DNA from: an uncultured Bacteroidia bacterium
GTDB taxonomy: Bacteria > Bacteroidota > Bacteroidia > J057
Reading direction: 5' to 3'
DNA length: 64,000 bases
Assembly: GCA_964521065.1 (NCBI GenBank)
Contig: CAZFPQ010000002.1
Span: forward strand, 21,909-85,908
In this document: piece by piece, positions 44,557 to 60,937 of the stretch
Position numbering within the stretch: position 1 is the first letter of the stretch
How the letters are laid out: the number at the start of each line of letters is the position of its first letter
The notes under the pieces: model-generated
Database searches by the model: none
What the model was told of the DNA's origin: nothing
The model's input: the letters and a program-made list of their open reading frames with translations, nothing else
Position numbers and translations under genes: made by a program

Positions 44557-44595
44557 ATTGGTCCAAAAAGTGCAAACAAAAGTACACTTTATTAA

Positions 44596-44616
44596 TTGAT
44601 AATCCCTGGTTATCAA
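44596..44616. promoter_or_regulatory. Perfect 7-bp inverted repeat TTGATAA-N7-TTATCAA in the rhaR / rhaEW divergent intergenic region (candidate operator)
   Basis: Read directly from the sequence: ttgataa (44596-44602), tccctgg, ttatcaa (44610-44616). It lies 40 bp upstream of the AraC ATG and 62 bp upstream of the rhaEW ATG. Confidence 0.25.
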
Positions 44617-44678
44617 CCTATTATTGTATAAAGGATCATTCAATAAGGTAGACAAAAAATAAGCGGATTGCTAAAATT

Positions 44679-46778
44679 ATGAACGTAAAGTCGTTTTCTC
44701 ATGTGGAATATCTCTGGGACGAAGCGAAAGCTTTGGAACTCGATGGAGATGAGGTGGCTCTCTTCCTATACCGGTCCAATATTCTGGGTGCAGACTTGCG
44801 CATCACCAATTTTGGTGGCGGCAATACCAGCTGCAAAACCGTTGAGAAAGACCCTTTAACCGGGCAAGAGACAGAGGTAATGTGGGTAAAAGGTTCGGGG
44901 GGTGACATTGGTACCCTCACCCGGGCGGGGATCGCGGGCTTGTATACCGACCGGCTAAGGGCATTAAAGAATATTTATCGAGGTCTCGAACACGAAGATG
45001 AAATGGTTGGGCTATTCTACCATTGTATTTACGACCTAGATAGCCGGGCCCCTTCTATCGATACCGCATTGCATGGCCTTCTTCCTTTTAAACATATAGA
45101 TCACCTTCATCCGGACGCACTTATTGCCATAGCGGCGGCAGAAGACAGCCAAGCCATCACCAAGGAAATATGGGGAGATAGCATGGGATGGATTCCCTGG
45201 CAGAGGCCTGGCTTTGACCTGGGACTACAATTAGAAAAATGCCTCAACGAAAACCCTGGTATTCGAGGTATTGTCCTAGGTGGGCATGGCTTATTTACCT
45301 GGGGAGACAGCTCCTATGACTGCTACATGAATAGCTTGGAGGTAATTGAGCAAGCTTCTGTATACATTGAAGAGCGTCTAGGGAAGGAAAGACCCGTTTT
45401 TGGAGGACCTAAAATAGAAAGCTTAGAGGAGGGAAGTCGTAAAAAGCAGGCGGCCAAACTGGCTCCTATTCTTAGAGGTCTTTGTTCCAGTGAAAAGCGA
45501 ATGATTGGCCACTTCACTGACGATGAAAGGGTACTTGCCTTTATCAATAGCCACGACTTAGACAAATTGGCCCCGCTAGGCACTTCTTGTCCAGATCACT
45601 TCCTACGCACCAAAATCCAACCCTTGGTCTTAGATCTAGCCGCAGATGCAGATCTAAGTCTGGTAGATGAAGTTAAAGCCCAGCTCATACCCAGCTTTGA
45701 ACAATATCGCCGGGAATATGCCGAATATTATGAAAGCTGTAAGCATCCCAATAGTCCCGCTATGCGCGACCCAAATCCAGTGGTCATTTTATATCCTGGC
45801 GTGGGCATGTTTACTTTTGCAAAAAACAAACAAACTGCGCGGGTGGCGAGTGAGTTTTACCTCAATGCCATCAATGTCATGCGGGGGGCTGAAGCCATCT
45901 CCAAGTACACAGCCCTTTCTAGGCAAGAAGCCTTCAACATCGAATACTGGCTTTTAGAAGAAGCCAAATTACAACGTCAGCCAGCAGAAAAACCCCTTTC
46001 GCGTAAAGTTGCCCTGATCACCGGTGCGGGAGGAGGAATTGGCAAAGCCATAGCTGACAAACTAGCCAAGGAAGGAGCCAATGTGGTCCTAACAGATATT
46101 TCCGAAGAGCGACTGGTCGAGGCCAATGCATCCTACAAAAGGGATGTTTCAACCTACTCTAAATGCAACGTTCGCAGCAAAGAAGACATTCAAAATGCAT
46201 TTGAGCATGCATGCTTAGAGTTTGGGGGAGTTGACATAGTTGTCCACTCTGCAGGATTGGCCATATCGAAGTCTTTGGAAGATCATAGCGAATCAGATTG
46301 GGACATCCTTCAAGACGTTCTCGTAAAAGGTCAGTTTTTATTGGATCAGGAGGGTGTACAGATCATGCGGAAGCAAGGGATTGGAGGTAACATCGTGCAC
46401 ATTGCATCCAAAAATGGGTTGGTATCTGGCCCCAATAATGTGGGCTATGGCACGGCCAAAGCTGCCCAGCAGCATATGACTCGATTATTGGCAGCCGAAT
46501 TGGGCAAAGAGAAAATCCGCGTCAACACGGTCAATCCTGACGGGGTGATCGTAGGCAGTAAAATTTGGGAGGGAGATTGGGCTAAAGGGCGAGCAAAGGC
46601 CCATGGGATTTCAGTAGAGGACCTACCTGCCCACTATGCCAAAAGAAACCTTATAAATGAGATCATATATCCAGAAGACATTGCCAATGGAGTGTTTGCC
46701 TTAGTAGGCATACTGGACAAGAGCACCGGCAATACCATAAATGTAGATGGAGGCATGGCCCCTGCCTTTGTCAGATAG
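44679..46778 (+). CDS. rhaEW: Bifunctional L-rhamnulose-1-phosphate aldolase / short-chain (lactaldehyde) dehydrogenase, RhaEW type
   Basis: Length is ~700 aa. The N-terminal class II aldolase/adducin-like domain has ITNFGGGNTSCK and VKGSGGD. The C-terminal SDR has the Rossmann motif ALITGAGGGIGKAIA and catalytic YGTAKAA (YxxxK). This architecture is the one described for RhaEW fusions in rhamnose regulons. Confidence 0.85.
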   Translation: MNVKSFSHVEYLWDEAKALELDGDEVALFLYRSNILGADLRITNFGGGNTSCKTVEKDPLTGQETEVMWVKGSGGDIGTLTRAGIAGLYTDRLRALKNIYRGLEHEDEMVGLFYHCIYDLDSRAPSIDTALHGLLPFKHIDHLHPDALIAIAAAEDSQAITKEIWGDSMGWIPWQRPGFDLGLQLEKCLNENPGIRGIVLGGHGLFTWGDSSYDCYMNSLEVIEQASVYIEERLGKERPVFGGPKIESLEEGSRKKQAAKLAPILRGLCSSEKRMIGHFTDDERVLAFINSHDLDKLAPLGTSCPDHFLRTKIQPLVLDLAADADLSLVDEVKAQLIPSFEQYRREYAEYYESCKHPNSPAMRDPNPVVILYPGVGMFTFAKNKQTARVASEFYLNAINVMRGAEAISKYTALSRQEAFNIEYWLLEEAKLQRQPAEKPLSRKVALITGAGGGIGKAIADKLAKEGANVVLTDISEERLVEANASYKRDVSTYSKCNVRSKEDIQNAFEHACLEFGGVDIVVHSAGLAISKSLEDHSESDWDILQDVLVKGQFLLDQEGVQIMRKQGIGGNIVHIASKNGLVSGPNNVGYGTAKAAQQHMTRLLAAELGKEKIRVNTVNPDGVIVGSKIWEGDWAKGRAKAHGISVEDLPAHYAKRNLINEIIYPEDIANGVFALVGILDKSTGNTINVDGGMAPAFVR

Positions 46779-46814
46779 ATTAGTAGTAGTAGTCTTTTTA
46801 TTTGCACACACATC

Positions 46815-46840
46815 GGTCGGGGAAACGTAGTTCCCCGACC
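46815..46840 (+). terminator. Stem-loop (10-bp perfect stem, 6-nt loop) between rhaEW and rhaI; intrinsic terminator/attenuator or mRNA stabiliser
   Basis: GGTCGGGGAA-acgtag-TTCCCCGACC is followed by cttttacc. It sits 37 nt after the rhaEW stop and 25 nt before the rhaI ATG. Confidence 0.4.
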
Positions 46841-46865
46841 CTTTTACCGCCCTCAATGAACCACT

Positions 46866-48149
46866 ATGCATATATCCCGAGATCAAATTGAGTCCATCAA
46901 TAAAACATCCTACGCGGAGCATTATAAGCAGCTAGAAGTGCTAAGTAGTCAGCTTGATAAGCGGGGATTAAACGTAGAGCAGTTAATAAAAAAGATCGAG
47001 TCTTTTCAGGTTGCCATCCCTAGCTGGGCCCTTGGCGCCGGAGGGACTAGATTTGGACGATTCTCTTTTGGCGGAGAACCTTCCAATCTGGAAGAGAAAA
47101 TAGATGATATCGGGATCATCCACGCCATCACCCAATCAGCCGGAGCTATTTCTTTGCATATCCCTTGGGATATTCCCCAGGACCCCAAAGCTATCCAAGA
47201 GCGAGCAGCTTCACATGGGATTGTATTTGATGCCATGAATTCCAATACATTCCAAGATCAGCCTAACCAGAAATTTAGCTACAAATATGGCTCTCTGGGG
47301 AACCGAGATTCCTCCGTAAGAGCAGCGGCAGTAACGCATAACAAGGAAGTAATCGACATGGGAGTCTCCTTAGGCTCCAAAAGCCTAACCGTCTGGTTAT
47401 CAGATGGGTCATCTTTCCCTGGGCAGCTAAACTTTCGGAAGGCTTTGGCTAGGACTTTGGAAAGTCTCAAAGAGATTTATGCCTACATGCCTGATGACTG
47501 GAAACTTTACATAGAGTATAAGCCATACGAGCCCAGCTTTTACAGCACGGTAATACAGGACTGGGGAACTTCTCACCTTTTGGCCAATGAATGTGGAGAA
47601 AACGCCTATTGCCTCGTGGACCTTGGCCATCATCTTCCCAATACCAACATTGAACAGATTGTTGCGACACTACTCTGGCGGGGAAAGCTGGGTGGCTTTC
47701 ATTTCAATGATAGCAAGTATGGCGATGACGACCTGACCGTGGGTAGCCTCAAGCCCTATCAACTCTTCTTGATTTTCAACGAGTTGGTGTATGGCATGGA
47801 AAACAACGAAGCCAACAATCCCGATCTGGCATGGATGATAGACGCCAGTCATAACGTCAAAGACCCTCTCGAAGACCTTCTTCAAAGCCTGGAAGCCATT
47901 CGGCTTGCCTATGCCCAAGCCTTGATCGTAGATAGAGATGAGTTAGATCATTTAAGAGGTCAAAATGAAGTAGTCCTTACCCAAGAATTGCTACAGGATG
48001 CCTACCGTACAGACCTAAGGCCTCTGGTGAGGGAGGCCAGACGCAGATCTGGAGGTGCCCTTGACCCCATTCACTGCTACAGAAAGGCTGAGATCCGTAA
48101 AAGTCTAATTGCCGAAAGAGGCTGGGAAACCATCGCAACAGGATTATAA
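46866..48149 (+). CDS. rhaI: L-rhamnose isomerase (RhaI / xylose-isomerase-like TIM-barrel type)
   Basis: Length is ~427 aa. The blocks VAIPSWALGAGGTRFGRF, AISLHIPWD, LYIEYKPYEP, VDLGHH and GGFHFNDSKYGDDDL are typical of the non-RhaA rhamnose isomerase family. The position between the aldolase and kinase genes supports the call. Confidence 0.8.
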   Translation: MHISRDQIESINKTSYAEHYKQLEVLSSQLDKRGLNVEQLIKKIESFQVAIPSWALGAGGTRFGRFSFGGEPSNLEEKIDDIGIIHAITQSAGAISLHIPWDIPQDPKAIQERAASHGIVFDAMNSNTFQDQPNQKFSYKYGSLGNRDSSVRAAAVTHNKEVIDMGVSLGSKSLTVWLSDGSSFPGQLNFRKALARTLESLKEIYAYMPDDWKLYIEYKPYEPSFYSTVIQDWGTSHLLANECGENAYCLVDLGHHLPNTNIEQIVATLLWRGKLGGFHFNDSKYGDDDLTVGSLKPYQLFLIFNELVYGMENNEANNPDLAWMIDASHNVKDPLEDLLQSLEAIRLAYAQALIVDRDELDHLRGQNEVVLTQELLQDAYRTDLRPLVREARRRSGGALDPIHCYRKAEIRKSLIAERGWETIATGL

Positions 48150-49453
48150 TGAAAGTAAGGGGCATCTTCGATATCGGAAAAACCAACAAAAAGTTCTTTC
48201 TCTTCGATGAGAGCTTGAAGGAGGTATACAGGGATTATACCCGTTTTGAGGAAACTCAAGACGATGAAGGTTTTCCTTGCGACGATGTTGTAGCCATCAA
48301 GAGCTGGATTGGTGAGATCTTCCGGCAAGTCTCACAAGAAGGTCAATTCGAAATCGTATCCCTCAATTTCTCTGCTTATGGAGCCAGCTTTGTCCACCTA
48401 GACAAAGAAGGGAAGGTAATTGCCCCCTTGTATAACTATCTAAAGCCTTACCCAAAAGATCTTTTGGATTCTTTTCATCACAAGTATGGAGAGGAATTGA
48501 ATCTGGCCACTGAGACGGCATCTCCCCCCCTAGGAATGCTCAACTCTGGGCTTCAGCTATATTGGCTCAAGCATACACATCCCGAGAAATTCAAGAAAAT
48601 CAGATGGTCTCTTCACCTTCCTCAGTATTTGAGCTACCTATTTACCGGTATTCCACTCAGTGAATATACCAGTGTTGGTTGTCACACCATGCTTTGGGAT
48701 TACGAAAAAGGTGATTATCACCGCTGGGTTTACGCGGAGGGGATTGACCACATATTGCCCCCTTTGGTAGAGACGGGACACAAGATTCATCATAAAACAG
48801 AAAAAACAGAGCTCAGCATTGGTGTTGGAATCCATGACAGTTCGGCTGCCTTGCTACCCTACCAAAAACTGAGTAATGACCCCTTTCTGCTTTTGTCTAC
48901 TGGAACTTGGAGCATCAGTCTCAACCCTTTCAACAACGAAGCCTTAACCCAAGATCAACTCCAAAAAGATTGCCTAAACTTCATGGGGATAAAAGGCAAT
49001 ACGGTGAGGGCATCACGACTTTTTCTTGGGAATGAATATAAAATATGGGCCCGACAGTTGGCAGATCACTTTCATCAACCCTATGAAAAGCATTCCTCGG
49101 TACCCATTGACCACCAGATCTTAGAATCCTTAGGTCGCTTCCCTGCCAACACCTTTCACTGGGAGAGCCTGTCCAAGACAGCCTGCCGCTGTTCCGAAAC
49201 AAACTTGAATCAGTTCGAATCTTATGAGACTGCCTATCACAAATTGATGCAGGAATTGGTCAATCTCCAGGTGGAAATCTTGCTCCTGGCCAAAGGGAAA
49301 AGTCCTATCCAAAAGATTTTTATCGATGGCGGATTTGCCGACAATCAGCTATTCATCCACCTGCTGAAACAACGATTAACTGGCTTTGACATTCAGGCTA
49401 CGAAAACCCCACTTGGCTCTGCCAAAGGGGCAGCCATGGTTTTGAATAACTAA
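48149..49453 (+). CDS. rhaB: FGGY-family carbohydrate kinase, probable rhamnulokinase
   Basis: FGGY-like N-terminus (GIFDIGKTNKKFFLFD), a central sugar-binding region, and the C-terminal IFIDGGFADNQLF. The start overlaps the rhaI stop (TAATG at 48147-48151), suggesting translational coupling. Substrate is inferred from context. Confidence 0.65.
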   Translation: MKVRGIFDIGKTNKKFFLFDESLKEVYRDYTRFEETQDDEGFPCDDVVAIKSWIGEIFRQVSQEGQFEIVSLNFSAYGASFVHLDKEGKVIAPLYNYLKPYPKDLLDSFHHKYGEELNLATETASPPLGMLNSGLQLYWLKHTHPEKFKKIRWSLHLPQYLSYLFTGIPLSEYTSVGCHTMLWDYEKGDYHRWVYAEGIDHILPPLVETGHKIHHKTEKTELSIGVGIHDSSAALLPYQKLSNDPFLLLSTGTWSISLNPFNNEALTQDQLQKDCLNFMGIKGNTVRASRLFLGNEYKIWARQLADHFHQPYEKHSSVPIDHQILESLGRFPANTFHWESLSKTACRCSETNLNQFESYETAYHKLMQELVNLQVEILLLAKGKSPIQKIFIDGGFADNQLFIHLLKQRLTGFDIQATKTPLGSAKGAAMVLNN

Positions 49454-49473
49454 CCCTTGAATACCCTAATTCG

Positions 49474-50679
49474 ATGAGTACCCCCTTCGATCCGAGATAT
49501 CCTGACATTTCATACCTAAGAGACCGGGCAAAACGCCGGATACCCCGCTTTGCTTTCGAGTATCTGGACGGAGGGTGTAATGCTGAGGTAAATCTCCATA
49601 GAAATACAGCTGAAATAAGGGAGGTACAACTAAGGCCTTACTACCTGCGAGAGCAAAATGAAATTTCCTTGCAAACTACCCTTTTTGGACATACTTATGA
49701 CGCTCCTTTTGGCATTGCCCCCATTGGTTTACAAGGGTTGATGTGGCCCAAGGCTTCAGAAATTTTAGCCAAGGCAGCTTTCGAACACAACATCCCCTAT
49801 ATCCTAAGCACTGTCGGTACCGCAAGCATAGAAACGATAGCCAAAATCACGGAAGGGAATGCTTGGTTTCAATTGTATCACCCCGCGGAAGCAGTCATCC
49901 GAAATGATTTACTTAATCGGGCCCAGGCTGCAGGTTATCCCGTCTTGGTGATCCTAGCAGATGTCCCCAGCTTTGGGTATCGCTCCAAAGAAATCAAGAA
50001 CGGATTGGCCATTCCGCCCCGAATGACCGCGCGGAACATCGCCCAGATCATGAGTCACCCAAACTGGGCTTTACAGACGCTATTTGCCGGGCAACCTACC
50101 TTCAAAACCTTAGCTCCCTACATTCCTAAAGGAATGAGTTTGCGCCACCTAGGCTTGTTCATGAACAAAACTTTCTCTGGTAAGCTCAACGAAGAACGGG
50201 TCCGTCAGATTAGGGACCTCTGGAAAGGCAAACTAGTACTTAAGGGTGTCGCCAGTGAAGAAGATGCAGATAAAGCGGTTAGCTGGGGGGTCGATGGGCT
50301 GATCTTGTCCAACCATGGCGGGCGCCAGCTAGACGCAGGCCCCTCTGCCATCAGCACGGTAGGTCCTATAGCCGATGCCTACAAGGATAAAGTCACCATC
50401 ATGATGGACAGTGGGATCCGTACGGGCCCCGATATTGCTGCCACCCTTGCGAGCGGCGCTGATTTTACTTTCTTAGGCCGCTCTTTCATGTATGGGGTAG
50501 CGGCTTTAGGAAAAAAAGGAGGCACCCACACCATCTCCCTACTTACCAGACAGCTTCAACAAGTGATGCAGCAATTAGGCTGTGAAAAGGTGTCTCACCT
50601 TCCTCAATTCTTGATTCCCAAAAACTACTACTTAAATGCAAGCCGAAGCCACGCAAATATCGCAGACCGAAGAATTTGA
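49474..50679 (+). CDS. lldD: FMN-dependent alpha-hydroxy-acid dehydrogenase (L-lactate dehydrogenase/oxidase family)
   Basis: Family blocks are IPRFAFEYLDGG, PFGIAPIGLQGL, WFQLY, LVLKGV, DGLILSNHGGRQLD and DSGIRTGPDIA. The context fits oxidation of the L-lactate produced by RhaEW. Confidence 0.8.
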   Translation: MSTPFDPRYPDISYLRDRAKRRIPRFAFEYLDGGCNAEVNLHRNTAEIREVQLRPYYLREQNEISLQTTLFGHTYDAPFGIAPIGLQGLMWPKASEILAKAAFEHNIPYILSTVGTASIETIAKITEGNAWFQLYHPAEAVIRNDLLNRAQAAGYPVLVILADVPSFGYRSKEIKNGLAIPPRMTARNIAQIMSHPNWALQTLFAGQPTFKTLAPYIPKGMSLRHLGLFMNKTFSGKLNEERVRQIRDLWKGKLVLKGVASEEDADKAVSWGVDGLILSNHGGRQLDAGPSAISTVGPIADAYKDKVTIMMDSGIRTGPDIAATLASGADFTFLGRSFMYGVAALGKKGGTHTISLLTRQLQQVMQQLGCEKVSHLPQFLIPKNYYLNASRSHANIADRRI

Positions 50680-52027
50680 ACGCCAGAAGGTTCCGGCGAG
50701 CCACCTCAAGGATTGGAAAAGCTTCCTGGGGATGTATGCCGGAGAACATGCTGCAGGGACAGAATTCCTTATCGGTCCCCTCTTCTTAACGACTGGGGTA
50801 AGTGCTTTTGACCTGATCTTTGGCCTCCTGATCGGCAACTTCCTCGCCGTACTTAGTTGGCGCTACCTCACTGCTGAGATTGCCGTCAAAAATCGCCTAA
50901 CCTTATACTATCAATTAGAGAAGATCTGTGGCAGGAAGTTGGTGACCGCCTATAACCTAGCCAATGGGATCTTGTTCTGCTTCCTAGCCGGAGCCATGAT
51001 CACCGTTTCCGCTACCGCCGTGGGAGTCCCCTTTGACATGGAGATGCCTAAACTCACCGATACCACCCCTAACGGGCCTACTTGGGTAATCATCGTACTA
51101 ATCATTGGCGCAGTGATATCAGTCATTGCGGCCAAGGGATATGCCACCGTCTCTAAAGTAGCCAACTGGATGGCTCCATTCATCGTCCTGGCTTTTATTG
51201 CCTGTGGAATTGTAGCCCTGGGACAGTTGGAAGTAAATAGCTTTGCCGACTTCTGGGCGATTTGGGGAGAAGGGAACGAACCGTTTCCTGGGCAGGTCAA
51301 ATATACCTTTTGGCACGTAGTCCTATGGTCTTGGTTCTGCAACGCCGCTATGCACATAGGCATGTCGGACCTTTCGGTTTTCCGGTACGCCCAAAACCCC
51401 AAAGTGGGTTGGACCACCGCCGCAGGGATCTACATAGGCCATTACATTGCCTGGATTGCGGCCGCGCTACTGTATGCTGTATACCTAAAAACCGGAGAAG
51501 CCCAAGCCTTTTTAAGCAATGGGGAAGCCCCTCCGGTAGCACCTGGCCCCTTGGCTTACAACGCTATCGGTGTCTTCGGTATCATCGCCGTGATTCTTGC
51601 CGGGTGGACCACCGCCAATCCGACCATATACCGAGCTGGTCTGGCCTTTCAGGCTATCTCACCTGGGACCTCTACCTTTTGGGTAACCATCTTCGCTGGG
51701 GCAATCGCCACCATCGCAGGACTATTTCCCGCCTTTGCCATGAAACTCCTCGACTTTGTGGCAGTATATGGCTTCATCTTAGCGCCTGTAGGAGCAATCA
51801 TCGTATTCGAACACTTTTTTGCAGAAAAACTAGGAATACCTAAAAATTATGCGGAGCAGGCTGGGATCTCATTTAACACTTCTGTTTTCCTAGCCTGGGC
51901 GATCAGCTTTGGTGGCTTTTACCTGCTTTCGGTCTCTCAGGGAGTGTTTTTGTCCTTTCTCACCCTCCCCGCCTGGGTTCTATGTGGGGTGCTTTTCTTG
52001 ATCTTTAGCAAAAGGAAATTGTCCTAG
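50636..52027 (+). CDS. Polytopic inner-membrane permease, NCS1/CodB-like (substrate unknown)
   Basis: About 12 hydrophobic segments. The N-terminus QKVPASHLKDWKSFLGMYAGEHAAGTEFLIGPLF resembles the cytoplasmic lead-in plus TM1 of purine-cytosine-permease-like proteins. The ATG at 50636 overlaps lldD by 44 nt; an alternative ATG at 50732 (MYAGEH) would remove the overlap. Confidence 0.45.
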   Translation: MQAEATQISQTEEFERQKVPASHLKDWKSFLGMYAGEHAAGTEFLIGPLFLTTGVSAFDLIFGLLIGNFLAVLSWRYLTAEIAVKNRLTLYYQLEKICGRKLVTAYNLANGILFCFLAGAMITVSATAVGVPFDMEMPKLTDTTPNGPTWVIIVLIIGAVISVIAAKGYATVSKVANWMAPFIVLAFIACGIVALGQLEVNSFADFWAIWGEGNEPFPGQVKYTFWHVVLWSWFCNAAMHIGMSDLSVFRYAQNPKVGWTTAAGIYIGHYIAWIAAALLYAVYLKTGEAQAFLSNGEAPPVAPGPLAYNAIGVFGIIAVILAGWTTANPTIYRAGLAFQAISPGTSTFWVTIFAGAIATIAGLFPAFAMKLLDFVAVYGFILAPVGAIIVFEHFFAEKLGIPKNYAEQAGISFNTSVFLAWAISFGGFYLLSVSQGVFLSFLTLPAWVLCGVLFLIFSKRKLS

Positions 52028-52069
52028 GCGTCCAAAGAAACTTTAACCCTTATTCGACCCCCGAAATCT

Positions 52070-55000
52070 ATGCCCATGACTGCCTACAAATGGATTGTAC
52101 TGGCCATTGCTTTTCTAAGCTATGTCTTGCCACGGATAGCCCAAGCCCAGCAACCCAACATCATTTTTATCCTTACGGATGATCAGCGATTTGACGCCTT
52201 GGGCTATGCTGGCAATGAGCTGATTCATACTCCAGAAATGGACAAACTGGCCCAAACAGGGACCTACTTCAAGCAGGCCATGGCATCTACACCGATTTGC
52301 GCCGCCAGCCGGGCAAGTATTTTAAGTGGTCGGTATGAGCGGACCCACCGTTTTACCTTCCAAACTGGAAATGTGCGCCAAGAATACATGGACCAAGCCT
52401 ATCCCAAGTTATTACGGGATGCGGGGTACGTCACGGGTTTTTATGGCAAATATGGCATTCGCTATGACGGAGAAGACAAGCTATTTGACCAATACGAGAC
52501 CTATGATCGAAACAATGCATTCAAGGATAGGCGGGGTTATTATTATAAGAAGCTAGGAGAGGATACGGTTCACCTAACTCGATACACGGGACAAAAAGCC
52601 ATCGACTTTATCGATCAAGCGGATGACGGGAAGCCCTTTTGTCTCTCACTGAGCTTCAGTGCTCCACACGCCCATGACCCAGCCAAGGATCAATATTTCT
52701 GGCAGACAGAAACAGATCCTTTGCTACAAGGAACCACCATGCCAGGCCCAGACTTGGCAGAAGACAAATACTTTGAGGCCCAGCCTGATTTCGTTCGGGC
52801 AGGCTTTAACCGCCTAAGATGGACCTGGCGCTATGACACCCCAGAGAAGTATCAACACAGTGTAAAAGGTTATTATCGGATGATCTCAGGCGTTGACTTA
52901 GAAATAGGGAAGATCCGTGAAAAGCTAGCCGAAAAAGGCCTGGACAAAAACACTGTCATCATCCTTATGGGAGATAATGGATACTTTTTGGGGGAGAGAC
53001 AGTTTGCGGGCAAATGGCTTTTGTATGACAATTCTATCAGGGTACCCTTGATCATATTTGACCCCAGAACTGAGCATCAAGATATCGATGTGCAAGTACA
53101 GAATGTTGATGTTCCTTCTACCATACTTGACCTAGCCGGTATCGAAGCACCGTCATCTTGGCAGGGCATGAGCCTTTTGCCTTTGGTCCAAAAAGAAAAA
53201 AGCAGCCTGGGGCGGGATACCGTTCTGATCGAGCATATCTGGGAATTTCAGCACATCCCGCCAAGTGAAGGCGTGAGAACCCAGGAGTGGAAGTACTTTC
53301 GCTATGTCAATGACAAGTCCGTCGAGGAGCTTTACCATTTGGTAAAAGATCCCAAAGAGATTAATAATCTGGCGAGTGATCCTGCTTATAGAGAGGTATT
53401 GGAGAAAATGAGAAAAAGCTGTGATGGGCTGATCCTCAAAAACAGCGACCCTTATTCTTTGCCTCCTGGCAATCTGAGTCTTGAATTTATCCGCGAGCCT
53501 TCTTTGGTTTTGCTGCAGGACTCTAAACCAGAATTTTCATGGACGCTAGCCAAAGAGTCCGTCTTTCAAAGTGCCTATCAAATACTGGTGGCATCCTCTC
53601 AAGCCAAGATCGATAACAACATAGGTGATGTGTGGGATAGTGGTCAGGTAAGAGGAGGCAAGTCCACGGATATTGAATATCAAGGCGCCCCATTATCATC
53701 TGGCCAGGCATACTATTGGAAGGTTAGAATTTGGGATGAAGCAAACCGCCTGTCTCAGTATGCAGCCAGTCAAACCTTCCAAATCGGGGAAGCCAAAACC
53801 TTATTAACCACGCCCAACACCATCCAAATTGACCGGATCAAGCCCAGTTTCTTCGAAAAGCGAGGTAAAGGCTCCTACTTCATTGACTTTGGTAAGGCAG
53901 CTTTTGCCAACATGGAAATTTCTTACGAAGCCAAGCGCCCCCATGTCCTGCTGATAAGAATTGGAGAGCAATTAGAAGGAGAGAACCTCAATCGCCATCC
54001 CGAGGGGAATATTCGTTACCAAGAAATACGCCTACCAGTCAAGCGGGGGCAACATACCTACCAGTTGCCTATTCAAGCTGATGAACGCAATACCAAGTCT
54101 ATCGCTGTTCAGTTACCCGACTCATTTCCGGTCCTGTTACCATTTCGGTATGCAGAAATTGATCAAGTAAAAGGAGAACTGAAGCAAGAGGAAATAACCC
54201 AGTTGGCTTACCATAGCTATTGGGAGGATGACCAAAGCAGTTTTTCCAGCTCAAACGACATCCTTAATCAGGTATGGGACCTATGCCGCTACTCCATCAA
54301 AGCCACTACTTTTGCTGGTTATTACGTAGACGGAGACCGAGAGCGCATCCCTTACGAAGCCGATGCTTACCTGAATCAGCTCAGCCATTATAGCGTTGAT
54401 CGGGAATATGCCATAGGTCGCAAGACCATTGAATACTTTTTTGAAAGTAAGCCCACCTGGCCCACTGAATGGCAACTACATGTAGCCATGATGATGTATC
54501 AAGACTACATGTACACGGGAAATGCTGAAATGATTGAAAAATATTATGAGCGATTAAAGGTCAAAACCCTGATGGATCTAGAGGTGGAAGATGGCTTTAT
54601 CAGCACGGAATCCCCTCACCACAATGGCCAGTTTTTGCTTGATCTGGGCTTTCCTGATTCGACTAAGAAGCTAAGAGATATTGTGGACTGGCCACCAGAA
54701 GCAAAACGATTTGGAGGAGTGGACAAGTACCAAAAGGGGGAGCGTGATGGCTACGTGTTCAAACGGATAAATACCGTAGTAAATGGATTTTACTACCACA
54801 ATATGAAGATCATGGCCACCTTTGCCCAGATCCTCGATAAGCCAAGCGAAGCCCTCGACTTTGAACTACGAGCCGCTAAGGTCAAAAAGTCCATCAATGA
54901 ACTGCTGTTTGATGAGGAAGCGGGATACTACGTTGACGGAATAGGAACCGACCATGGATCTCTGCATGCCAACATGATCTTAATGGCCTTTGACCTTGTT

Positions 55001-55588
55001 CCTGAGAAGAGAAAAGCCACTGTGGTTGAGCACATAAAGTCTCGCGGACTGGCTTGCAGTGTGTACGGTGCCCAATATTTATTAGAAGCCCTATACAAAG
55101 CAGGAGAAGCCAAATATGCTGAAGAGCTCATGACTGCTACCCATGACCGGAGTTGGTACAACATGATCAAGGTGGGATCTACCATTACCCTTGAAGCCTG
55201 GGACATGAAGTATAAAGTCAATGCTGATTGGAATCATGCTTGGGGGGCAGCTCCTGCCAACATAATCCCTAGATTTCTCTGGGGCATTCAGCCCAAGACT
55301 CCTGGTTATGGAATCGCCAGCATCAAGCCCCAAATGGGGACCTTGACTCGCAGTTCTATCAAGGTTCCCACGATCAAGGGGCCCATTTTGGGATCATACC
55401 GATACATCAATGCCAGGCGGCAGACCTTCACCATAGATATCCCTGCCAACATGGTCGCTGAATTTGAACTTCCTTCAGCTTCAGGTCAGGTGATCAAACT
55501 TAATGGGGAAAAAGTCAATTCAGCCTTTGGGACTATTCGCCTGACACCTGGCCAGAATAAAATCGAGTTGGTGGTAAACTCTTTTTAA
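52070..55588 (+). CDS. Fusion protein: N-terminal S1 sulfatase plus C-terminal GH78-like alpha-L-rhamnosidase module
   Basis: A signal peptide is present. The sulfatase half (to about 53450) has [14 protein letters not shown], the signature [27 protein letters not shown] and [16 protein letters not shown]. The GH78 half has PEFSWTL...[11 protein letters not shown]...[10 protein letters not shown] and the (alpha/alpha)6 block [20 protein letters not shown]. It is one uninterrupted 1172-codon ORF. Confidence 0.8.
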
Positions 55589-55626: not shown

Positions 55627-56217
55627 ATGGGACAAATGCGGACGCAAAATAAAGCTCGGTATCCTCAGCCAGACGGCCCCATAAGCCTTCGTGTTATTTC
55701 TGATCATGAATCCATGTTCAAGAAATACTACCCGGGTTTGTGCGCATTCGCCTGTCGCATTTTGAAAGACCCCAATGTTGCAGAGGATATCGTTCAGGAA
55801 GTGTTTATGAAATTCTGGCGTGACCGACATATGTTAATCATTTCGGAGTCCACCCAGGCCTATCTCTATTTGGCCACCAAAAACCTCTCCATTAACTACC
55901 TCAAAAAGCAACGTCGCCGTTCTGAGCTAATGAATATTTACCTCGAGGATCTAGGTCAGATCACCTATAATCAGGATTCCTACGTCAATCTTCAAGATTT
56001 AAATGGGAGTATAGAAAAGGCCATAGAGCTCTTGCCCCCTAAATGTCGCCAAGTTTTTGAGCTCAGCCGAAACCATTATAAAAGCCATGTGGAGATAGCA
56101 GAGCAATTAAAAATCTCCCCAAAAACAGTCGCCAATCAAATTGGAAAGGCCTTAAAGATCCTGAGGAAAAATTTATCGGGTTTTTTGATGCTATTTGGCT
56201 TGATCTGCATTTTATAA
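55627..56217 (+). CDS. ECF-type RNA polymerase sigma-70 factor
   Basis: Region 2 is EDIVQEVFMKFWRDR. Region 4 HTH is LPPKCRQVFELSRNHYKSHVEIAEQLKISPKTVANQIGKALKILRKNL. A FecR-like gene follows immediately. Confidence 0.85.
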   Translation: MGQMRTQNKARYPQPDGPISLRVISDHESMFKKYYPGLCAFACRILKDPNVAEDIVQEVFMKFWRDRHMLIISESTQAYLYLATKNLSINYLKKQRRRSELMNIYLEDLGQITYNQDSYVNLQDLNGSIEKAIELLPPKCRQVFELSRNHYKSHVEIAEQLKISPKTVANQIGKALKILRKNLSGFLMLFGLICIL

Positions 56218-56303
56218 GCAAGCAAAAAAATGAAATAATTATCACCTGGCAATAGGTATTGCCCCTGCCTCGCCTGCTATACAATTATAAGCACCATAAC
56301 AGA

Positions 56304-57311
56304 ATGAATGACGAGTACATCTGGAGCCTGATTGCCAAATTTTGCGATGGCAGTATCAAGGAAAAAGAAGAGGGAGTACTGCTCGCCTGGATAGGTGCGG
56401 ATTCAGAAAATCGTAAGATCTTTAAAGAAGTGGTCCAGTTGATGGAAACTAAAAAGTCTACCCCTCAGGTAGATACCAAGCAAGCTTGGCAAAAGGTCAA
56501 AGGCAAACTGATAGAGGAGGAATTGATAAGAAATTCAGCAGAAAAAAACTTCCGTTTTTCTAACCCCTATGGCTTAGCCGCAGTATTTCTACTCCTAGCC
56601 ATGTTAGCAGGGGCTTCCTTTTTTATCCCTTGGCAAGGGGAAGGTAGTCAAAAGGTCATAAGCATCAGTCATCCCGGTGATGTAGATTCATTTTTGGTGC
56701 GACTACCTGATGGCAGCAGGGTCTGGCTAAATAAGACCGCCCAGCTAACTTATGAAAAATCATTTGGTCAAGATGAGCGGATGGTAGAGCTGCTTGGTGA
56801 AGGTTTTTTCGAAGTGGTAAAAGATTCTAAGAGGCCATTTGTAGTGGTTTCGCAAGGAGTTCGCACCATGGCCTTGGGTACGTCCTTTAATGTCCAAGCC
56901 TTTGCAGATCAGGACGAGGTGATTATATCCCTCGCCACCGGCAAGGTGCGTGTCAGTACACCCCTAAAATCCCAACCCGTTGTACTTGCCCCTGGGGAAG
57001 AAATAAAGGTCTCCCCGAGAGATGGCAGCCACCAAAAAAGAGTCTTTGAACCAGAAGAGCGATTAGCCTGGAAAGAAGGAATGATTTATTTCAAATCGGC
57101 TGATGTACAGCAGGTAGTGAAAACCTTGAGCCGGTGGTACGGCATCAGTTTTGAAATCAAGGACCGTGAGAAAATGAAAAGCCAACTCTCTGCTACCTAT
57201 AAGCAGGAGAGCCTGGAGGACATACTTGACATGATCAGCTTCTCTGCTGATTATGAATTTACAATCAATGGGAGTACGGTGACGGTGCACCCTAGCATTT
57301 CGGGACTATAA
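56304..57311 (+). CDS. FecR-family anti-sigma factor / transmembrane sensor
   Basis: The start is moved to the ATG at 56304 (MNDEYIWSLIAKF...). There is a single TM segment (GLAAVFLLLAMLAGASFFI). The FecR domain is VRLPDGSRVWLNKTAQLTYEK...VELLGEGFFEVVKDSKRPFVV...TSFNV. Confidence 0.85.
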   Translation: MNDEYIWSLIAKFCDGSIKEKEEGVLLAWIGADSENRKIFKEVVQLMETKKSTPQVDTKQAWQKVKGKLIEEELIRNSAEKNFRFSNPYGLAAVFLLLAMLAGASFFIPWQGEGSQKVISISHPGDVDSFLVRLPDGSRVWLNKTAQLTYEKSFGQDERMVELLGEGFFEVVKDSKRPFVVVSQGVRTMALGTSFNVQAFADQDEVIISLATGKVRVSTPLKSQPVVLAPGEEIKVSPRDGSHQKRVFEPEERLAWKEGMIYFKSADVQQVVKTLSRWYGISFEIKDREKMKSQLSATYKQESLEDILDMISFSADYEFTINGSTVTVHPSISGL

Positions 57312-57509
57312 ACCTTATGACTATGAACTACTACCAAGACTCTTACCACGACTCTAGCTGAGTGGCACTCTGGGTCAGTAATCAAGGATGACTGACCGCA
57401 TAAGTTAAATCATTTAGGGATTACAACTCACTTGGAATGTTCGGCCTGGGCAGTCCTAGGGTCCCTATATCCTTTACGAAGGCTTCCTTCTATTATTAAT
57501 AAAAACAAT

Positions 57510-60500
57510 ATGGACACTACAACAACTACTAGGCAACTAATTGCTTTGTCCAAAATTGCCCTATTTACCTTTTGCATCGGCTGCTTTAGCCTATATCCGG
57601 CAATGGCAGAAACGGACTATCCGGGTCAGCCTGATATAAAAGAGGTAAAGCTATCCGTCAACTGGAATCAGATGACCCTAGGCAAAGCATTCTCAGAAAT
57701 CGAACGAAAAACAGACTTTTTCTTTTCCTACGACGAAACACTACTCAGAGACCAGAGCGTAATTACCTATCGGGCAGAAAAAGAACCATTAACCCGGGTA
57801 TTACAGCACATCTCGAATCAGACAGATCTCACCTTCAAGCAAGTAAAGGACTACATCCTGGTTCGACGAAAGAAAAAAGCCAGTACGGGTACTCTAAAGC
57901 AGCTCGAGCCGGCGCCCGTTCGCGCTCCTCTGGCCCACCCCCTGCGGCAGCCCGAGCTTAGCTCACTTTATCCGTTAGAAAAAGAAATCTCTGGCACCGT
58001 GACCAACGAAGCGGGAGAACCGCTTACGGGAGCGACCGTCATCGCCAAAGGTACCAACATTGGGATGATCACAGATGAGGAAGGAAAATTTAGCATAACC
58101 GTGCCCGATAAGGTGACTACCTTAACCATATCTTTTATTGGCTTCGTGCCTCTAGACGTCTCTATTGCCGGCCAAAGTACCATCAATGTTTCGCTGGAAA
58201 TTGATGCCCTCAGCTTGAATGAGGTGGTGGTGGTAGGCTATGGAACCACCAAAAAATCTGACTTAACCGGTTCCGTTGCCTCTGTAAGTGCTGAAGATAT
58301 CGTAGCAGTTCCTAATTCAAGGGTTGACCAAGCCCTACAAGGCCGAGCAGCGGGAGTACATGTTACCCAAACCAGTGGAGCACCAGGAGCCGGAACCGTT
58401 ATCCGGGTTCGAGGAGGAAACTCTATTACTGGCAGCAATGAGCCTCTTTGGGTCATCGATGGAATCATTGTAGGGACGAATTTCAACTTGAACAACATCA
58501 ACTCAAATGACATTCAGTCGATAGAAGTCTTGAAGGATGCTTCCTCTATTGCCATTTATGGCTCTAGGGGAGCCAACGGGGTGGTCTTGGTTACCACCAA
58601 AAGTGGTGGTGGAGCAGTTCGCGGAAAACCTCAAGTAAGCTTTAACCTATACTCTGGTGTACAACTGGTACCTGAGCTGCCCGAAATGCTCACCCAAGAA
58701 GAGCAAATTGCCTTTACCAATGAGAGCGCTAGGTTCAGATCTGCGGCCGAACCATTTCCTGACGATCCATCTACCTACCCCAACAACGATTGGTATGACT
58801 TACTGCTTGGCCCTTCCCCTATGTACAACGCCGATGTCTCTATCGCCGGTTCTTCAGAAAATGGGAAAGTCAACTATTACAACTCTTTCAACTATTTCAA
58901 CCAAGATGGGCTGGTTATCAGCTCAGGCATTGAGAAATATATTTACCGATCCAACTTAGACCTGAAGCTCAGCGATAAAGTCAGCGCAGGTTTCCGACTC
59001 AATTACTCAAGGATTGCCAGGGATAATGGCGTGGTGAGCTTTGGCAACGCTTTTGCCACCCTGCCGACTCAGCCTATCCGCAATGAGGATGGAAGTTTTA
59101 ATGGGTTCAATGAGGTAGTAGGATCCCCTTTTTCCAATCCCATTGCCAATGCAGAGTTGAACACCAACGAGACTTTCACCAACAACCTGCTCGCAACGGC
59201 TTATGTAGAGTATCGTCCCTCTCCAAAGTGGACCATTCGCTCTACCTTCAACCCAGAATTCAACAACACCAAGCAAAATGTATTCAATTCCAGTGAGCGT
59301 CCAGACTTCCTTGAAGTAGGAGAGCTAGGGAATGCCCGGGTTCGCACAGTAGCCAGCACAGGATGGAACAATGAAAATACCATCCAGTACCAATCCGATA
59401 TTGGTACAGATCATCGCATTACGGTACTTGGTGGTGCATCTTTCCAGCAGGTACAGACCGAAATCACTGAAGCTGAAGCATTTGGTATCACCAGTGATGC
59501 CGCAGGTTTCAACAACCTAGCCTTTTCAGACCCCACCAGAGCAGTGGTTTCCAGTGATTTTACCGGCTTTCAAATCGCCTCCTTCTTTGGCAGGCTGAAC
59601 TATGTCTTCAGGGATAAATACCTCTTTACCGTAGTGGGAAGAACGGATGGCAGTTCCGTATTTGCCCCTGGGAACAAGTATGAATTCTACCCCTCAGTAG
59701 CTGCGGCTTGGAAAATATCTGAAGAGGCCTTTATGCAAAGTCAAAACTTTGTAGAAGACCTTAAACTGAGAGCGAGCTACGGACGTTCAGGCAATCAGGC
59801 CATCGGCCCCTACAGGACCCTAGGGCTGCTGACCGAGGCCAACACGACCCTCAATGGACTGCAAAATCCAGGACTGACCTTGGGACGGCCTGCCAACCCC
59901 AACCTGCGTTGGGAAACAACCACTTCCTTCGATGTCGCCCTAGAAGCGGCATTCCTTCGAGGCCGAATCTTTGCGGAATTGAATTACTATTATAAGAGAA
60001 CCGAAGACCTACTCCTGGATGTGACCATTCCCCGCCAAACTGGATTTACGAGTCAGTTACAAAATATCGGCTCCCTACAAAACCAAGGTTGGGAACTGTT
60101 GCTGACCTCTCGAAACTTCGTACAGGATAAATTCACCTGGTCTTCTACCGTTACTTTGGCGGCCAACAATAACGAAATCCTTGATCTAGGTGGCGCTGAG
60201 TTTATCGATGTAACCGTAGATGAGATTTTAGGCTCAGGAAATACACGCCTCATCGTCGGCCAACCCGTACCTGTATTTACTGGAGTTCAATACCTAGGTA
60301 CCTGGAAAAGTCAAGAGGAGATTGATGCTTCTGGCCTCAGTTCTCAAGTCGTAGGTGGACCTCGCTACGAGGACCTAAATGGAGACGGCATTATTTCTAC
60401 AGAAGATAACATCGTGATTGGAGATCCTACTCCCGACCTAATCTTTGGTGTTGACAATACCTTCTCGATCCAGAACTTTGATTTCTCTTTTTACTTCCAG

Positions 60501-60929
60501 GGAACGCTTGGCAATGAGGTATACAACCTCAGAATGCGAAACCACTATTTCAACCGAGGTGAAACCACCAAGTTTGCGGACTTAGCTAATCGCTGGACCC
60601 CAGAAAACCCTGCCTCAGATATTCCTAGAGCAGGATCAGATGCGGTCACCACCAATCTGAGCAACACGGAATACGTGGAAGATGGGTCTCATCTGCGCCT
60701 AAAAACCGTCCGACTAGCTTACAACATTTTCGGAACCGATCGGATCCAGAATGCCACCATCTATCTGACTGGCACTAACCTACTGTTGTTATCCAACTTC
60801 CGGCTCATTGACCCAGAGACCAGTCGTTTTGGCAGAAATGGCCTAGGAAACATTGCCCAAGGCTATGCCAACGGGGAATATCCAAATCCTCGCATTATAA
60901 CCCTTGGATTTAACATCACCTTTAAATAG
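57510..60929 (+). CDS. susC: SusC/RagA-family TonB-dependent transporter with N-terminal STN signalling domain
   Basis: The start is moved to the ATG at 57510 (MDTTTTTRQLIALSKIALF...). The STN-like block is VNWNQMTLGKAFSEIERKTDFFFSYDE. The CarboxypepD_reg block is ISGTVTNEAGEPLTGATVIAKGTNIGMITDEEGKFSI. The SusC hallmark LNEVVVVGYGTTKKSDLTGSVASV is present, and the C-terminus is ...GFNITFK. Confidence 0.9.
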   Translation: MDTTTTTRQLIALSKIALFTFCIGCFSLYPAMAETDYPGQPDIKEVKLSVNWNQMTLGKAFSEIERKTDFFFSYDETLLRDQSVITYRAEKEPLTRVLQHISNQTDLTFKQVKDYILVRRKKKASTGTLKQLEPAPVRAPLAHPLRQPELSSLYPLEKEISGTVTNEAGEPLTGATVIAKGTNIGMITDEEGKFSITVPDKVTTLTISFIGFVPLDVSIAGQSTINVSLEIDALSLNEVVVVGYGTTKKSDLTGSVASVSAEDIVAVPNSRVDQALQGRAAGVHVTQTSGAPGAGTVIRVRGGNSITGSNEPLWVIDGIIVGTNFNLNNINSNDIQSIEVLKDASSIAIYGSRGANGVVLVTTKSGGGAVRGKPQVSFNLYSGVQLVPELPEMLTQEEQIAFTNESARFRSAAEPFPDDPSTYPNNDWYDLLLGPSPMYNADVSIAGSSENGKVNYYNSFNYFNQDGLVISSGIEKYIYRSNLDLKLSDKVSAGFRLNYSRIARDNGVVSFGNAFATLPTQPIRNEDGSFNGFNEVVGSPFSNPIANAELNTNETFTNNLLATAYVEYRPSPKWTIRSTFNPEFNNTKQNVFNSSERPDFLEVGELGNARVRTVASTGWNNENTIQYQSDIGTDHRITVLGGASFQQVQTEITEAEAFGITSDAAGFNNLAFSDPTRAVVSSDFTGFQIASFFGRLNYVFRDKYLFTVVGRTDGSSVFAPGNKYEFYPSVAAAWKISEEAFMQSQNFVEDLKLRASYGRSGNQAIGPYRTLGLLTEANTTLNGLQNPGLTLGRPANPNLRWETTTSFDVALEAAFLRGRIFAELNYYYKRTEDLLLDVTIPRQTGFTSQLQNIGSLQNQGWELLLTSRNFVQDKFTWSSTVTLAANNNEILDLGGAEFIDVTVDEILGSGNTRLIVGQPVPVFTGVQYLGTWKSQEEIDASGLSSQVVGGPRYEDLNGDGIISTEDNIVIGDPTPDLIFGVDNTFSIQNFDFSFYFQGTLGNEVYNLRMRNHYFNRGETTKFADLANRWTPENPASDIPRAGSDAVTTNLSNTEYVEDGSHLRLKTVRLAYNIFGTDRIQNATIYLTGTNLLLLSNFRLIDPETSRFGRNGLGNIAQGYANGEYPNPRIITLGFNITFK

Positions 60930-60937
60930 AAGCTCCA

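Follow-up and report, generated by a model that had tools for sequence, protein, structure and literature searches.

The gene at 52070..55588 (plus strand) of the analysed window, by which we mean the whole stretch of 64,000 nucleotides, very probably encodes an orthologue of P36 (FA22250) of Formosa agariphila, a bifunctional and exo-acting enzyme with which bacteria break down ulvan, a polysaccharide of green seaweeds. This reading is derived from the architecture, the homology to the characterised P36, the retained catalytic residues and the ulvan-locus context. The fusion enzyme is an ordinary member of the characterised and widespread P36 family and not a new one; the enzyme type, the structure of the sulfatase module and the two-step role in ulvan breakdown were already published in 2019-2021. 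The only local peculiarity of the gene is its position, as it follows a rhamnose catabolic operon at a distance of 42 nt. With the open reading frame, the Pfam domains, the match to PDB entry 6HR5 and the relatives taken together, we annotate the whole gene with confidence as an S1_25 sulfatase / GH78 alpha-L-rhamnosidase (P36-type), and the window, which belongs to a Saprospiraceae-like bacterium, as an ulvan-type polysaccharide utilisation locus.

The gene forms a single open reading frame of 1172 codons plus stop in the window, with an ATG start and no internal stops. A first-pass annotation of this DNA had proposed that a sulfatase and a GH78 module share one polypeptide. This is borne out by the uninterrupted frame, which contains both full Pfam domain sets, and every protein string quoted at that time is present (aa 77-89, 500-510, 548-557 and 751-767). 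The sulfatase part comprises the Pfam domains Sulfatase (aa 29-358, E=1e-48; the full profile, 1-301, is covered) and SGSH_C (aa 308-451). It is followed by Ig_Rha78A_N (aa 480-573), Bac_rhamnosid (aa 598-713), Bac_rhamnosid6H (aa 721-1067, E=2e-43) and Bac_rhamnosid_C (aa 1072-1144), and PF25788, PF05592, PF17389 and PF17390 each exceed the gathering threshold in the fusion protein. The GH78 module is thereby laid out as an N-terminal Ig-like domain, a beta-sandwich, an (alpha/alpha)6 catalytic domain and a C-terminal beta domain. The border between both modules, placed at ~53450 in the first-pass annotation, lies at aa ~462-467 (nt ~53455-53470) according to the Pfam analysis. We regard aa ~27-462 (52148..53455, plus strand) as the S1_25 sulfatase module, based on Pfam Sulfatase, SGSH_C and the 6HR5 match, and aa ~467-1172 (53468..55585, plus strand) as the GH78 module, based on Pfam and structure alignments.

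To judge how common this architecture is we considered its relatives. A database search gave 1390 matches, and the architecture occurs in more than 1000 protein clusters. The best 120 out of the 1390 matches are 1146-1225 aa long, possess both domain sets and cover 98-100% of the query at 64-78% identity. Among species-representative genomes 591 out of 600 pattern matches were confirmed, i.e. the fusion is present in at least 591 Bacteroidota genomes. The domain order had been considered unknown, yet the sulfatase comes first in 30 out of 30 aligned relatives and in all of the best 120 database matches. In the alignment of the 30 relatives the mean column identity of the family is 73%, and the window protein shows only 14 departures from columns that are at least 90% conserved, all of them conservative and none catalytic. 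Its closest relatives are found in Saprospiraceae metagenome-assembled genomes (72-78% identity). In a library of representatives at 50% identity the sulfatase fusion is one full-length cluster (P0006) accompanied by two apparently truncated entries. The family spread shows that the sulfatase fusion is one tight, widespread clade, and that the large GH78 sub-type around it otherwise consists of stand-alone enzymes.

The connector between both modules (aa ~456-475, 53435..53494, plus strand), delimited by alignment with the 30 relatives, has no insertions or deletions among them. Because its length is fixed in all 30 relatives, it is not a flexible linker. It could hold both active sites in a geometry that favors hand-over of the desulfated chain end. 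No relic of a signal peptide is seen at the connector in the 30 aligned sequences. These observations also speak to the trivial explanation that the fusion is an artefact, in which an error of sequencing or assembly near nt 53450 merged two neighbouring genes. We found no point in its support. The constant connector without a relic signal peptide argues against it, the same single-ORF architecture recurs in the many clusters and genomes counted above, and already in the crystal-structure entry the protein is called a rhamnosidase/sulfatase. We therefore rejected an artefactual fusion, which is hardly conceivable.

The sulfatase module is assigned to SulfAtlas subfamily S1_25 by its close homology to 6HR5, an entry entitled [quoted passage not shown]. 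Residues 19-462 match this structure at 70% identity (749 bits, E=1e-223), and the next-best solved sulfatase reaches 171 bits (E~1e-49). The 6HR5 construct begins directly past the leader peptide. The subfamily, likewise considered unknown before, is thus given by homology, and the precedent of P36 that had been cited is real and a direct homologue. The formylglycine motif C77-A-A-S-R81 (C-x-A-x-R; 52298..52312, plus strand) is conserved in the 30 relatives, with C77, A79, S80 and R81 invariant, and agrees with the S1 signature C/S-x-P/A-x-R. Equally invariant are D37, D38, K127, H200, D302, N303 and K315, to which we ascribe, by analogy with S1 sulfatases in general, the metal-binding and catalytic roles of the conserved Asp/Asp/Asn, Lys and His. 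The other sulfatases of the window are at most 30% identical to S1_25 proteins of this kind.

In the GH78 module two motifs are predicted to carry the catalytic residues. The acid-side motif D754-G-D-R-E758-R-I-P-Y762-E-A-D765 (54329..54364, plus strand) was located by alignment with BsRhaB, whose D567, E572 and D579 correspond to D754, E758 and D765, and W576 to Y762. It also aligns with DCPHRER of the other GH78s of the window. The base-side motif L-E1042-A-W-D (55190..55204, plus strand) was located with SaRha78A and BsRhaB, and E1042 aligns with E895 and E841, respectively. With the residue roles taken from the literature (PMC3663046, PMC7263609), E758 is the predicted general acid and E1042 the predicted general base. 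The identity of the GH78 module was measured against relatives, Nonlabens ulvanivorans among them. Among the 30 fused relatives the acid-side motif is invariant except for a conservative D756E in one and A764G in another, with a few changes flanking it, and the base-side motif with E1042 is invariant across the fused family. We looked for loss of catalytic residues in the alignments and found none; both modules keep all catalytic positions.

Compared to DCPxRER the acid-side motif shows a deletion of one residue and a change of W to Y. This departure from DCPxRERxGW is the argument for a further explanation, namely that one module is catalytically dead and has only a binding or scaffolding role. 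However, the catalytic positions of both modules are invariant in the family, the same motif is present in stand-alone GH78s, and both P36 domains were active when expressed separately (PMC8511951). A dead module is therefore very improbable, and an inactive GH78 module in particular was rejected. The term "divergent sub-type", proposed in the first-pass annotation, does not fit: the motif is near-invariant in the fused family and, with conservative substitutions, common to stand-alone GH78s, with the catalytic Asp/Glu/Asp and the base Glu kept. The motif DCP.RER.GW.GD ascribed to the two canonical GH78s of the window (11589..14888 and 25468..28728) is correct except for the last position, which is E and not D, as they read VDCPHRERRGWGE. 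Two canonical GH78s had been counted; a third GH78-like gene at 14950..18510 reads MDCPDRERGLWIGD. This third gene combines a PL38-like lyase with a GH78-like module in one product and is more unusual than the fusion at 52070..55588, with no second example of such a fusion found. Long GH78 relatives were also considered as independent sulfatase fusions and rejected, since their extra parts are CBMs, a SASA esterase or GH127.

A full-length AlphaFold2 model computed from the 30-sequence alignment has a mean pLDDT of 67 and a pTM of 0.51, and neither active site is modelled with good confidence. With this low-confidence model Foldseek retrieved 6I60, 3CIH, 6GSZ, 3W5N, 8IWF and 2OKX, all with probability 1.00.

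The genomic context is of the ulvan type. The window contains a PL28 ulvan lyase, present as a C-terminal fragment (23..523), and a PL40-like lyase (5662..8109; match to PDB 9VTK, Uly1040, E=1e-79), and also encodes two GH78, two GH106, a GH2, three further sulfatases, RhaT and SusC/D. The genes of the nearest relatives adjoin PL28, Ulvan_lyase_N/C, GH106 and GH3 genes. Nevertheless, ulvan need not be the sole substrate of the family, because the fusion is also found in non-marine Bacteroidota, namely in Spirosoma (including Spirosoma spitsbergense), Lacihabitans, Pelobium and Chitinophagaceae. An alternative is that the P36-type architecture acts here on another substrate, a sulfated rhamnan or 6-deoxyhexose glycan with possibly another sulfate position, such as Monostroma-type rhamnan sulfate or the sulfated methyl-pentose polymers of microalgae. 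The occurrence in Bacteroidota of fresh water and soil, habitats in which one does not expect ulvan, would fit such a substrate, as would the very variable neighbourhoods of 83 related loci and the unusually many rhamnosidases of the window (three GH78-type and two GH106). Against this stand the 70% identity to a characterised Rha3S exo-sulfatase, the near-invariance of the family and the ulvan-lyase genes in the window itself. We consider another substrate unlikely and ulvan the preferred one.

A hint towards localisation arises from the N-terminus, where a signal peptide of the SPase-I type is predicted by reading of the sequence (aa 1-26, 52070..52147, plus strand; cut before QQ). Relatives likewise bear N-terminal hydrophobic leaders. 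A lipobox Cys is missing ahead of the cleavage site of this leader, and neither the sequence nor Pfam revealed a T9SS C-terminal domain. The enzyme had been described as secreted; given this leader and the missing T9SS domain it is most likely periplasmic.

Substrate and localisation are inferred, as are the sequence of both steps and a possible coupling, be it of the modules to each other or of the gene to the operon upstream. For P36 it was reported that the sulfatase domain desulfates Rha3S at the non-reducing end and that the GH78 domain then removes this rhamnose (PMC8511951, PMC8360166, PMC12858550), along the route Rha3S-X-Rha3S to Rha-X-Rha3S to Rha + X-Rha3S (PMC8511951). The domains were assayed separately, and each was active when expressed alone (PMC8511951). 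The channelling of both steps that the first-pass annotation had suggested would go beyond these separate assays. By analogy, Cys77 of the S1_25 module would be converted to formylglycine after export by a maturase that would be encoded elsewhere; no gene for a formylglycine-generating enzyme or anSME was recognised in the window. [quoted passage not shown] The freed rhamnose might be imported and catabolised via the adjacent isomerase, kinase and aldolase-dehydrogenase genes.

These adjacent genes belong to the rhamnose catabolic operon (44679..52027, plus strand), which is preceded by a divergent regulator of the AraC family (43651..44655, minus strand). The operon encodes a bifunctional rhamnulose-1-P aldolase/SDR (RhaD), L-rhamnose isomerase (RhaI), an FGGY kinase, an FMN-dependent dehydrogenase and an NCS1-like permease. 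The permease, a polytopic membrane protein publicly named purine-cytosine/NCS1-family permease, ends at 52027, which confirms the reported spacing of 42 nt to the fusion gene (52028..52069, plus strand, from the ORF ends). No terminator-like site was found in this gap. The Bacteroidota -7 motif TAnnTTTG is absent from the intergenic gaps, which is weak negative evidence, and a sigma-70 promoter/terminator scan gave counts no higher than in shuffled sequence, with a promoter model that is inapplicable to Bacteroidota. Taking the same strand, the short gap and the missing terminator-like site together, co-transcription of the fusion gene with the rhamnose operon is plausible. This would be a neat but modest case of tying periplasmic sugar release to cytoplasmic catabolism.

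None of 83 related loci (80 genome loci, F. agariphila itself not being one of them, and the three closest metagenome loci) shows the order rhamnose operon, permease and P36-type gene, so that the family does not conserve this arrangement. The gene neighbourhoods are highly variable among these loci. A rhamnose operon is located ~4 kb downstream of the fusion gene in one locus (L083), downstream in another (L010) and upstream on the other strand in a third (L012), and the permease is found downstream in a fourth (L045). One might propose that only in this lineage a P36-type gene was moved to the 3' end of the rhamnose operon and is co-transcribed under the divergent AraC-type regulator with product-driven feedback. 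We regard this as possible but rather doubtful. If true, free rhamnose would induce a periplasmic enzyme that frees more rhamnose, forming a positive feedback loop.

Among known systems the closest is P36 of F. agariphila KMM 3901 (FA22250; P36_S1_25 + P36_GH78), which also carries an N-terminal S1_25 and a C-terminal GH78 module in one polypeptide, and whose ulvan-type locus (PUL H) also holds rhamnose catabolic genes. The same chemistry, desulfation of Rha3S followed by release of rhamnose, may be expected by analogy. The lineage differs, as the window protein is closest to Saprospiraceae metagenome-assembled genomes, and the window gene stands directly behind the rhamnose operon and ahead of an ECF sigma / anti-sigma / SusC / SusD set. 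For Nonlabens ulvanivorans a combination of GH78 and sulfatase has been reported in the literature. Its fusion gene (locus L075) is built alike, with a product that is 63% identical over aa 6-1172, and the nearby canonical GH78s are 64-70% identical to GH78a and GH78b of the window, but a SusC/SusD pair and not a rhamnose operon is located upstream. Stand-alone GH78s (~740 aa; for instance P0121 with 54% identity) possess the same four-domain GH78 body without the sulfatase module and share the motifs Y(I/V)DGDRERI(P/S/A)YE(A/G)DA and T(L/T/M/W)EAWD. More distant is BT1001 of Bacteroides thetaiotaomicron (PDB 3CIH), which has a DG-form of the motif (DGIKRDR) and not DCP. SaRha78A (3W5M), BsRhaB (2OKX), DtRha (6I60) and the window GH78s at 11589 and 25468 belong to the same fold family with conserved acid and base Glu. 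These canonical GH78s differ from the fusion in having DCPxRERxGW instead of D-GDRERIPY and an extra Bac_rhamnosid_N domain, and their structural-alignment identity to the fusion GH78, taken from the low-confidence model, is 11-16%.

The gene at 52070..55588 (+) comprises 1172 codons in one open reading frame, and reading of the sequence revealed no internal stop. This is in agreement with the first-pass annotation, which had described a single uninterrupted frame and whose cited protein strings were each found where expected. According to Pfam, the N-terminal part contains a full-length Sulfatase domain (aa 29-358, E=1e-48) and the sulfatase C-terminal sub-domain SGSH_C (aa 308-451), and a complete GH78 alpha-L-rhamnosidase domain set lies C-terminal to them: Ig_Rha78A_N (aa 480-573), Bac_rhamnosid (aa 598-713), the (alpha/alpha)6 catalytic domain Bac_rhamnosid6H (aa 721-1067, E=2e-43) and Bac_rhamnosid_C (aa 1072-1144). 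The border between both modules falls at aa ~462-467 (nt ~53455-53470), in good agreement with the position near 53450 proposed before. An AlphaFold model of the protein was poor (pLDDT 67, pTM 0.51). The N-terminal 26 residues, followed by QQ, resemble a signal-peptidase-I leader. As this leader possesses no lipoprotein cysteine and the C-terminus no T9SS sorting domain, the protein is predicted to be periplasmic, and not secreted as originally proposed.

Queried with the fusion protein, 5.8 billion protein clusters yielded 1390 matches. The best 120 of the 1390, which stem from Saprospiraceae, Flavobacteriaceae, Marinilabiliales, Cytophagales and others, are all 1146-1225 aa long, contain both domain sets and share 64-78% identity with the query across 98-100% of its length. 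With one genome counted per species, the fused architecture was confirmed in at least 591 of the 600 pattern matches listed, among them Nonlabens ulvanivorans PLR and Hyunsoonleella ulvae. Across 30 aligned members of the fused family, column identity averages 73%; the protein of the window deviates 14 times from columns conserved to at least 90%, in each case conservatively and never at a catalytic position. The two modules are joined by a connector (aa ~456-475) that is free of insertions and deletions in all 30 members; this argues for a fixed rather than a floppy junction. It also argues against a fusion created by the assembly, an explanation that lacks support and whose probability we consider negligible.

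The formylglycine motif of the sulfatase module is C77-A-A-S-R81, and the 30-member alignment shows no variation at D37, D38, K127, H200, D302, N303 and K315. For the GH78 module, equivalent residues were taken from HMMER alignments to BsRhaB (2OKX) and SaRha78A (3W5M), and from a MAFFT alignment with the three other GH78-type proteins of the window. D754, E758, Y762 and D765 correspond to D567, E572, W576 and D579 of BsRhaB, and E1042 to E841 of BsRhaB and E895 of SaRha78A; the catalytic roles of the equivalent residues are described in the literature (PMC3663046; PMC7263609). That one of the two modules is inactive lacks support and is very improbable.

Compared to the canonical VDCPHRERRGW, the GH78 block of the fusion protein shows a one-residue deletion and a Trp-to-Tyr exchange. 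The first-pass annotation was therefore right that it differs from the canonical form, but “divergent” does not describe a block that is near-invariant among the 30 fused members (the only exchanges are D756E and A764G, each in a single, different sequence) and that occurs, with conservative changes only, in stand-alone GH78s of ~700-760 aa at 38-54% identity. The DGIKRDR form of BT1001/3CIH resembles it. An exhaustive search of representative clusters with the GH78 half only (E<=1e-30) found 758 clusters, mostly stand-alone enzymes of 600-780 aa. At 50% identity the form fused to a sulfatase is represented by a single full-length cluster (P0006) and by two shorter entries, which seem to be truncated, judging by where they match. 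None of the longer relatives of this sub-type that we checked contains a sulfatase; they possess CBMs, a SASA esterase or a GH127 instead. Because the motif recurs in stand-alone enzymes and the fused form amounts to one full-length cluster, the motif is, on sequence grounds, the mark of a large GH78 sub-type, with the sulfatase fusion as one tight clade inside it. In another member of the sub-type, the library entry P0203, the GH78 has a SASA-family carbohydrate esterase as its fusion partner, a combination that may repeat the logic of removing a blocking group and then cleaving the sugar, with another blocking group.

Its gene content marks the window as an ulvan-type polysaccharide utilisation locus. 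This label is supported by the C-terminal end of a PL28-type endo-ulvan lyase (beta-trefoil and T9SS sorting domain) at 23..523 (+), cut by the window start. A PL40-like lyase of 815 aa at 5662..8109 (+) has no Pfam or NCBIfam match and reaches E=1e-79 to PDB 9VTK, the characterised PL40 ulvan lyase Uly1040. The region further contains two canonical GH78s (starts 11589 and 25468), two GH106s (starts 8096 and 28810), one GH2 (32369, −), three more S1 sulfatases (starts 4111, 19670 and 23892), RhaT (start 3055) and, at various positions, BNR_4 proteins and two SusC/SusD-type sets. Homologues of the PL40-like protein lie near orthologues of P36, the Formosa agariphila S1_25-GH78 enzyme, in 8 of 80 loci. 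The sulfatase at 19670..21526 (+), with 618 aa and a C-terminal HEAT-repeat extension, has homologues (38-42% identity) near such orthologues in about 9 of the 80. Directly downstream of the fusion gene, after only 38 nt, lies a trans-envelope signalling PUL module (55627..62509, +), in which an ECF sigma factor and an anti-sigma factor of the FecR type are followed by a SusC-like receptor of 1165 aa, extended at its N-terminus, and by a SusD-like protein.

A second bimodular gene, at 14950..18510 (+), is more unusual than the sulfatase fusion. Its 1186-aa frame joins an N-terminal alginate-lyase-family domain (PF05426; PDB 3NFV, E=4e-64; 8BDQ/9FI*, E~1e-46) to a GH78-like body with the motif MDCPDRERGLWIGD. 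The 8BDQ/9FI* entries are Bacteroides “alginate lyase family protein” structures, which we take to be PL38, and the domain is probably PL38-like. In the search of 5.8 billion clusters no protein other than the window's own sequence combined both domains: relatives of the C-terminal GH78-like two-thirds are all stand-alone (~785 aa), and the lyase domain has other fusion partners in its relatives, namely GH2, S1 sulfatase, GH88/GH105-like or SLH domains. Both modules meet at a clean junction, as the lyase domain ends (…KFTPQEILMYAP) as in its relatives, the GH78-like part starts (…NWGNARWIWQ) where the mature stand-alone proteins start, and no relic signal peptide is found between them. The gene may represent a unique lyase-glycosidase fusion.

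Upstream of the sulfatase fusion, and on the same strand, lie genes for a bifunctional rhamnulose-1-phosphate aldolase/short-chain dehydrogenase (44679, +; above the NCBIfam cut-off), L-rhamnose isomerase (46866, +), an FGGY kinase most similar to rhamnulokinase (48149, +) and an FMN-dependent dehydrogenase (49474, +). The operon is closed, directly before the fusion gene, by a 463-aa polytopic membrane protein (50636..52027, +), termed a purine-cytosine/NCS1 permease in some sources. Neither Pfam nor NCBIfam nor PDB yields a match for it, even at E=10, yet more than 7800 homologues (79-86% identical) exist in several Bacteroidota families. No characterised member was found among them; we regard the protein as a candidate transporter of rhamnose or a related sugar. 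The gap of 42 nt reported earlier is correct. As a sequence scan of this gap found neither a terminator-like hairpin nor a Bacteroidota -7 motif, co-transcription of the fusion gene with the operon is plausible, if weakly indicated. Between the aldolase/dehydrogenase and isomerase genes, at 46814..46846 (+), a GC-rich hairpin (CGGTCGGGGAA-ACGTAG-TTCCCCGACC) is followed by CTTTTA; located within the putative operon, it may act as an internal attenuator or RNA-processing site.

The order of operon and fusion gene is not a property of the P36-type family, since no rhamnose operon lies immediately upstream of the P36 orthologue in any of 80 genome loci or the three closest metagenome loci. One of the latter (L083) carries it ~4 kb downstream instead. 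Immediately upstream, these three possess a conserved gene for a ~285-aa protein with a leader peptide (L081 9094-9948; L082 9113-9976; L083 8905-9759), 73-75% identical among them, present also in the related loci L003 and L012, without a Pfam match and without a homologue in the window. A move behind the rhamnose operon might have led to rhamnose-induced positive feedback, a suggestion we make tentatively.

The P36 precedent named in the first-pass annotation is real. Residues 19-462 of the fusion protein match PDB 6HR5, [quoted passage not shown], with E=1e-223, and 70% of the 446 aligned columns are identical; the runner-up solved sulfatases, from other subfamilies, do not get beyond E~1e-49. 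In the ulvan locus PUL H of F. agariphila, FA22250 is the protein P36, which is therefore, judged by similarity, the direct homologue. Its sulfatase desulfates the non-reducing-end rhamnose in Rha3S-X-Rha3S trisaccharides and its GH78 domain takes off the same rhamnose after desulfation, the domains having been assayed separately (PMC8511951). Given the architecture, the orthology-level similarity, the conserved catalytic residues and the locus type, the fusion protein very probably works by the P36 mechanism; its substrate, localisation and any kinetic coupling we infer. After export to the periplasm and maturation of C77 to formylglycine, the sulfatase module would remove sulfate from terminal Rha3S in an exo-reaction, E758 and E1042 would hydrolyze the exposed alpha-L-rhamnose with inversion, and neighbouring genes would provide rhamnose uptake and catabolism. 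The main rival, an enzyme of this type whose substrate is a different sulfated rhamnan, is suggested by the occurrence of fused-family members in non-marine Bacteroidota and appears unlikely to us. [quoted passage not shown]
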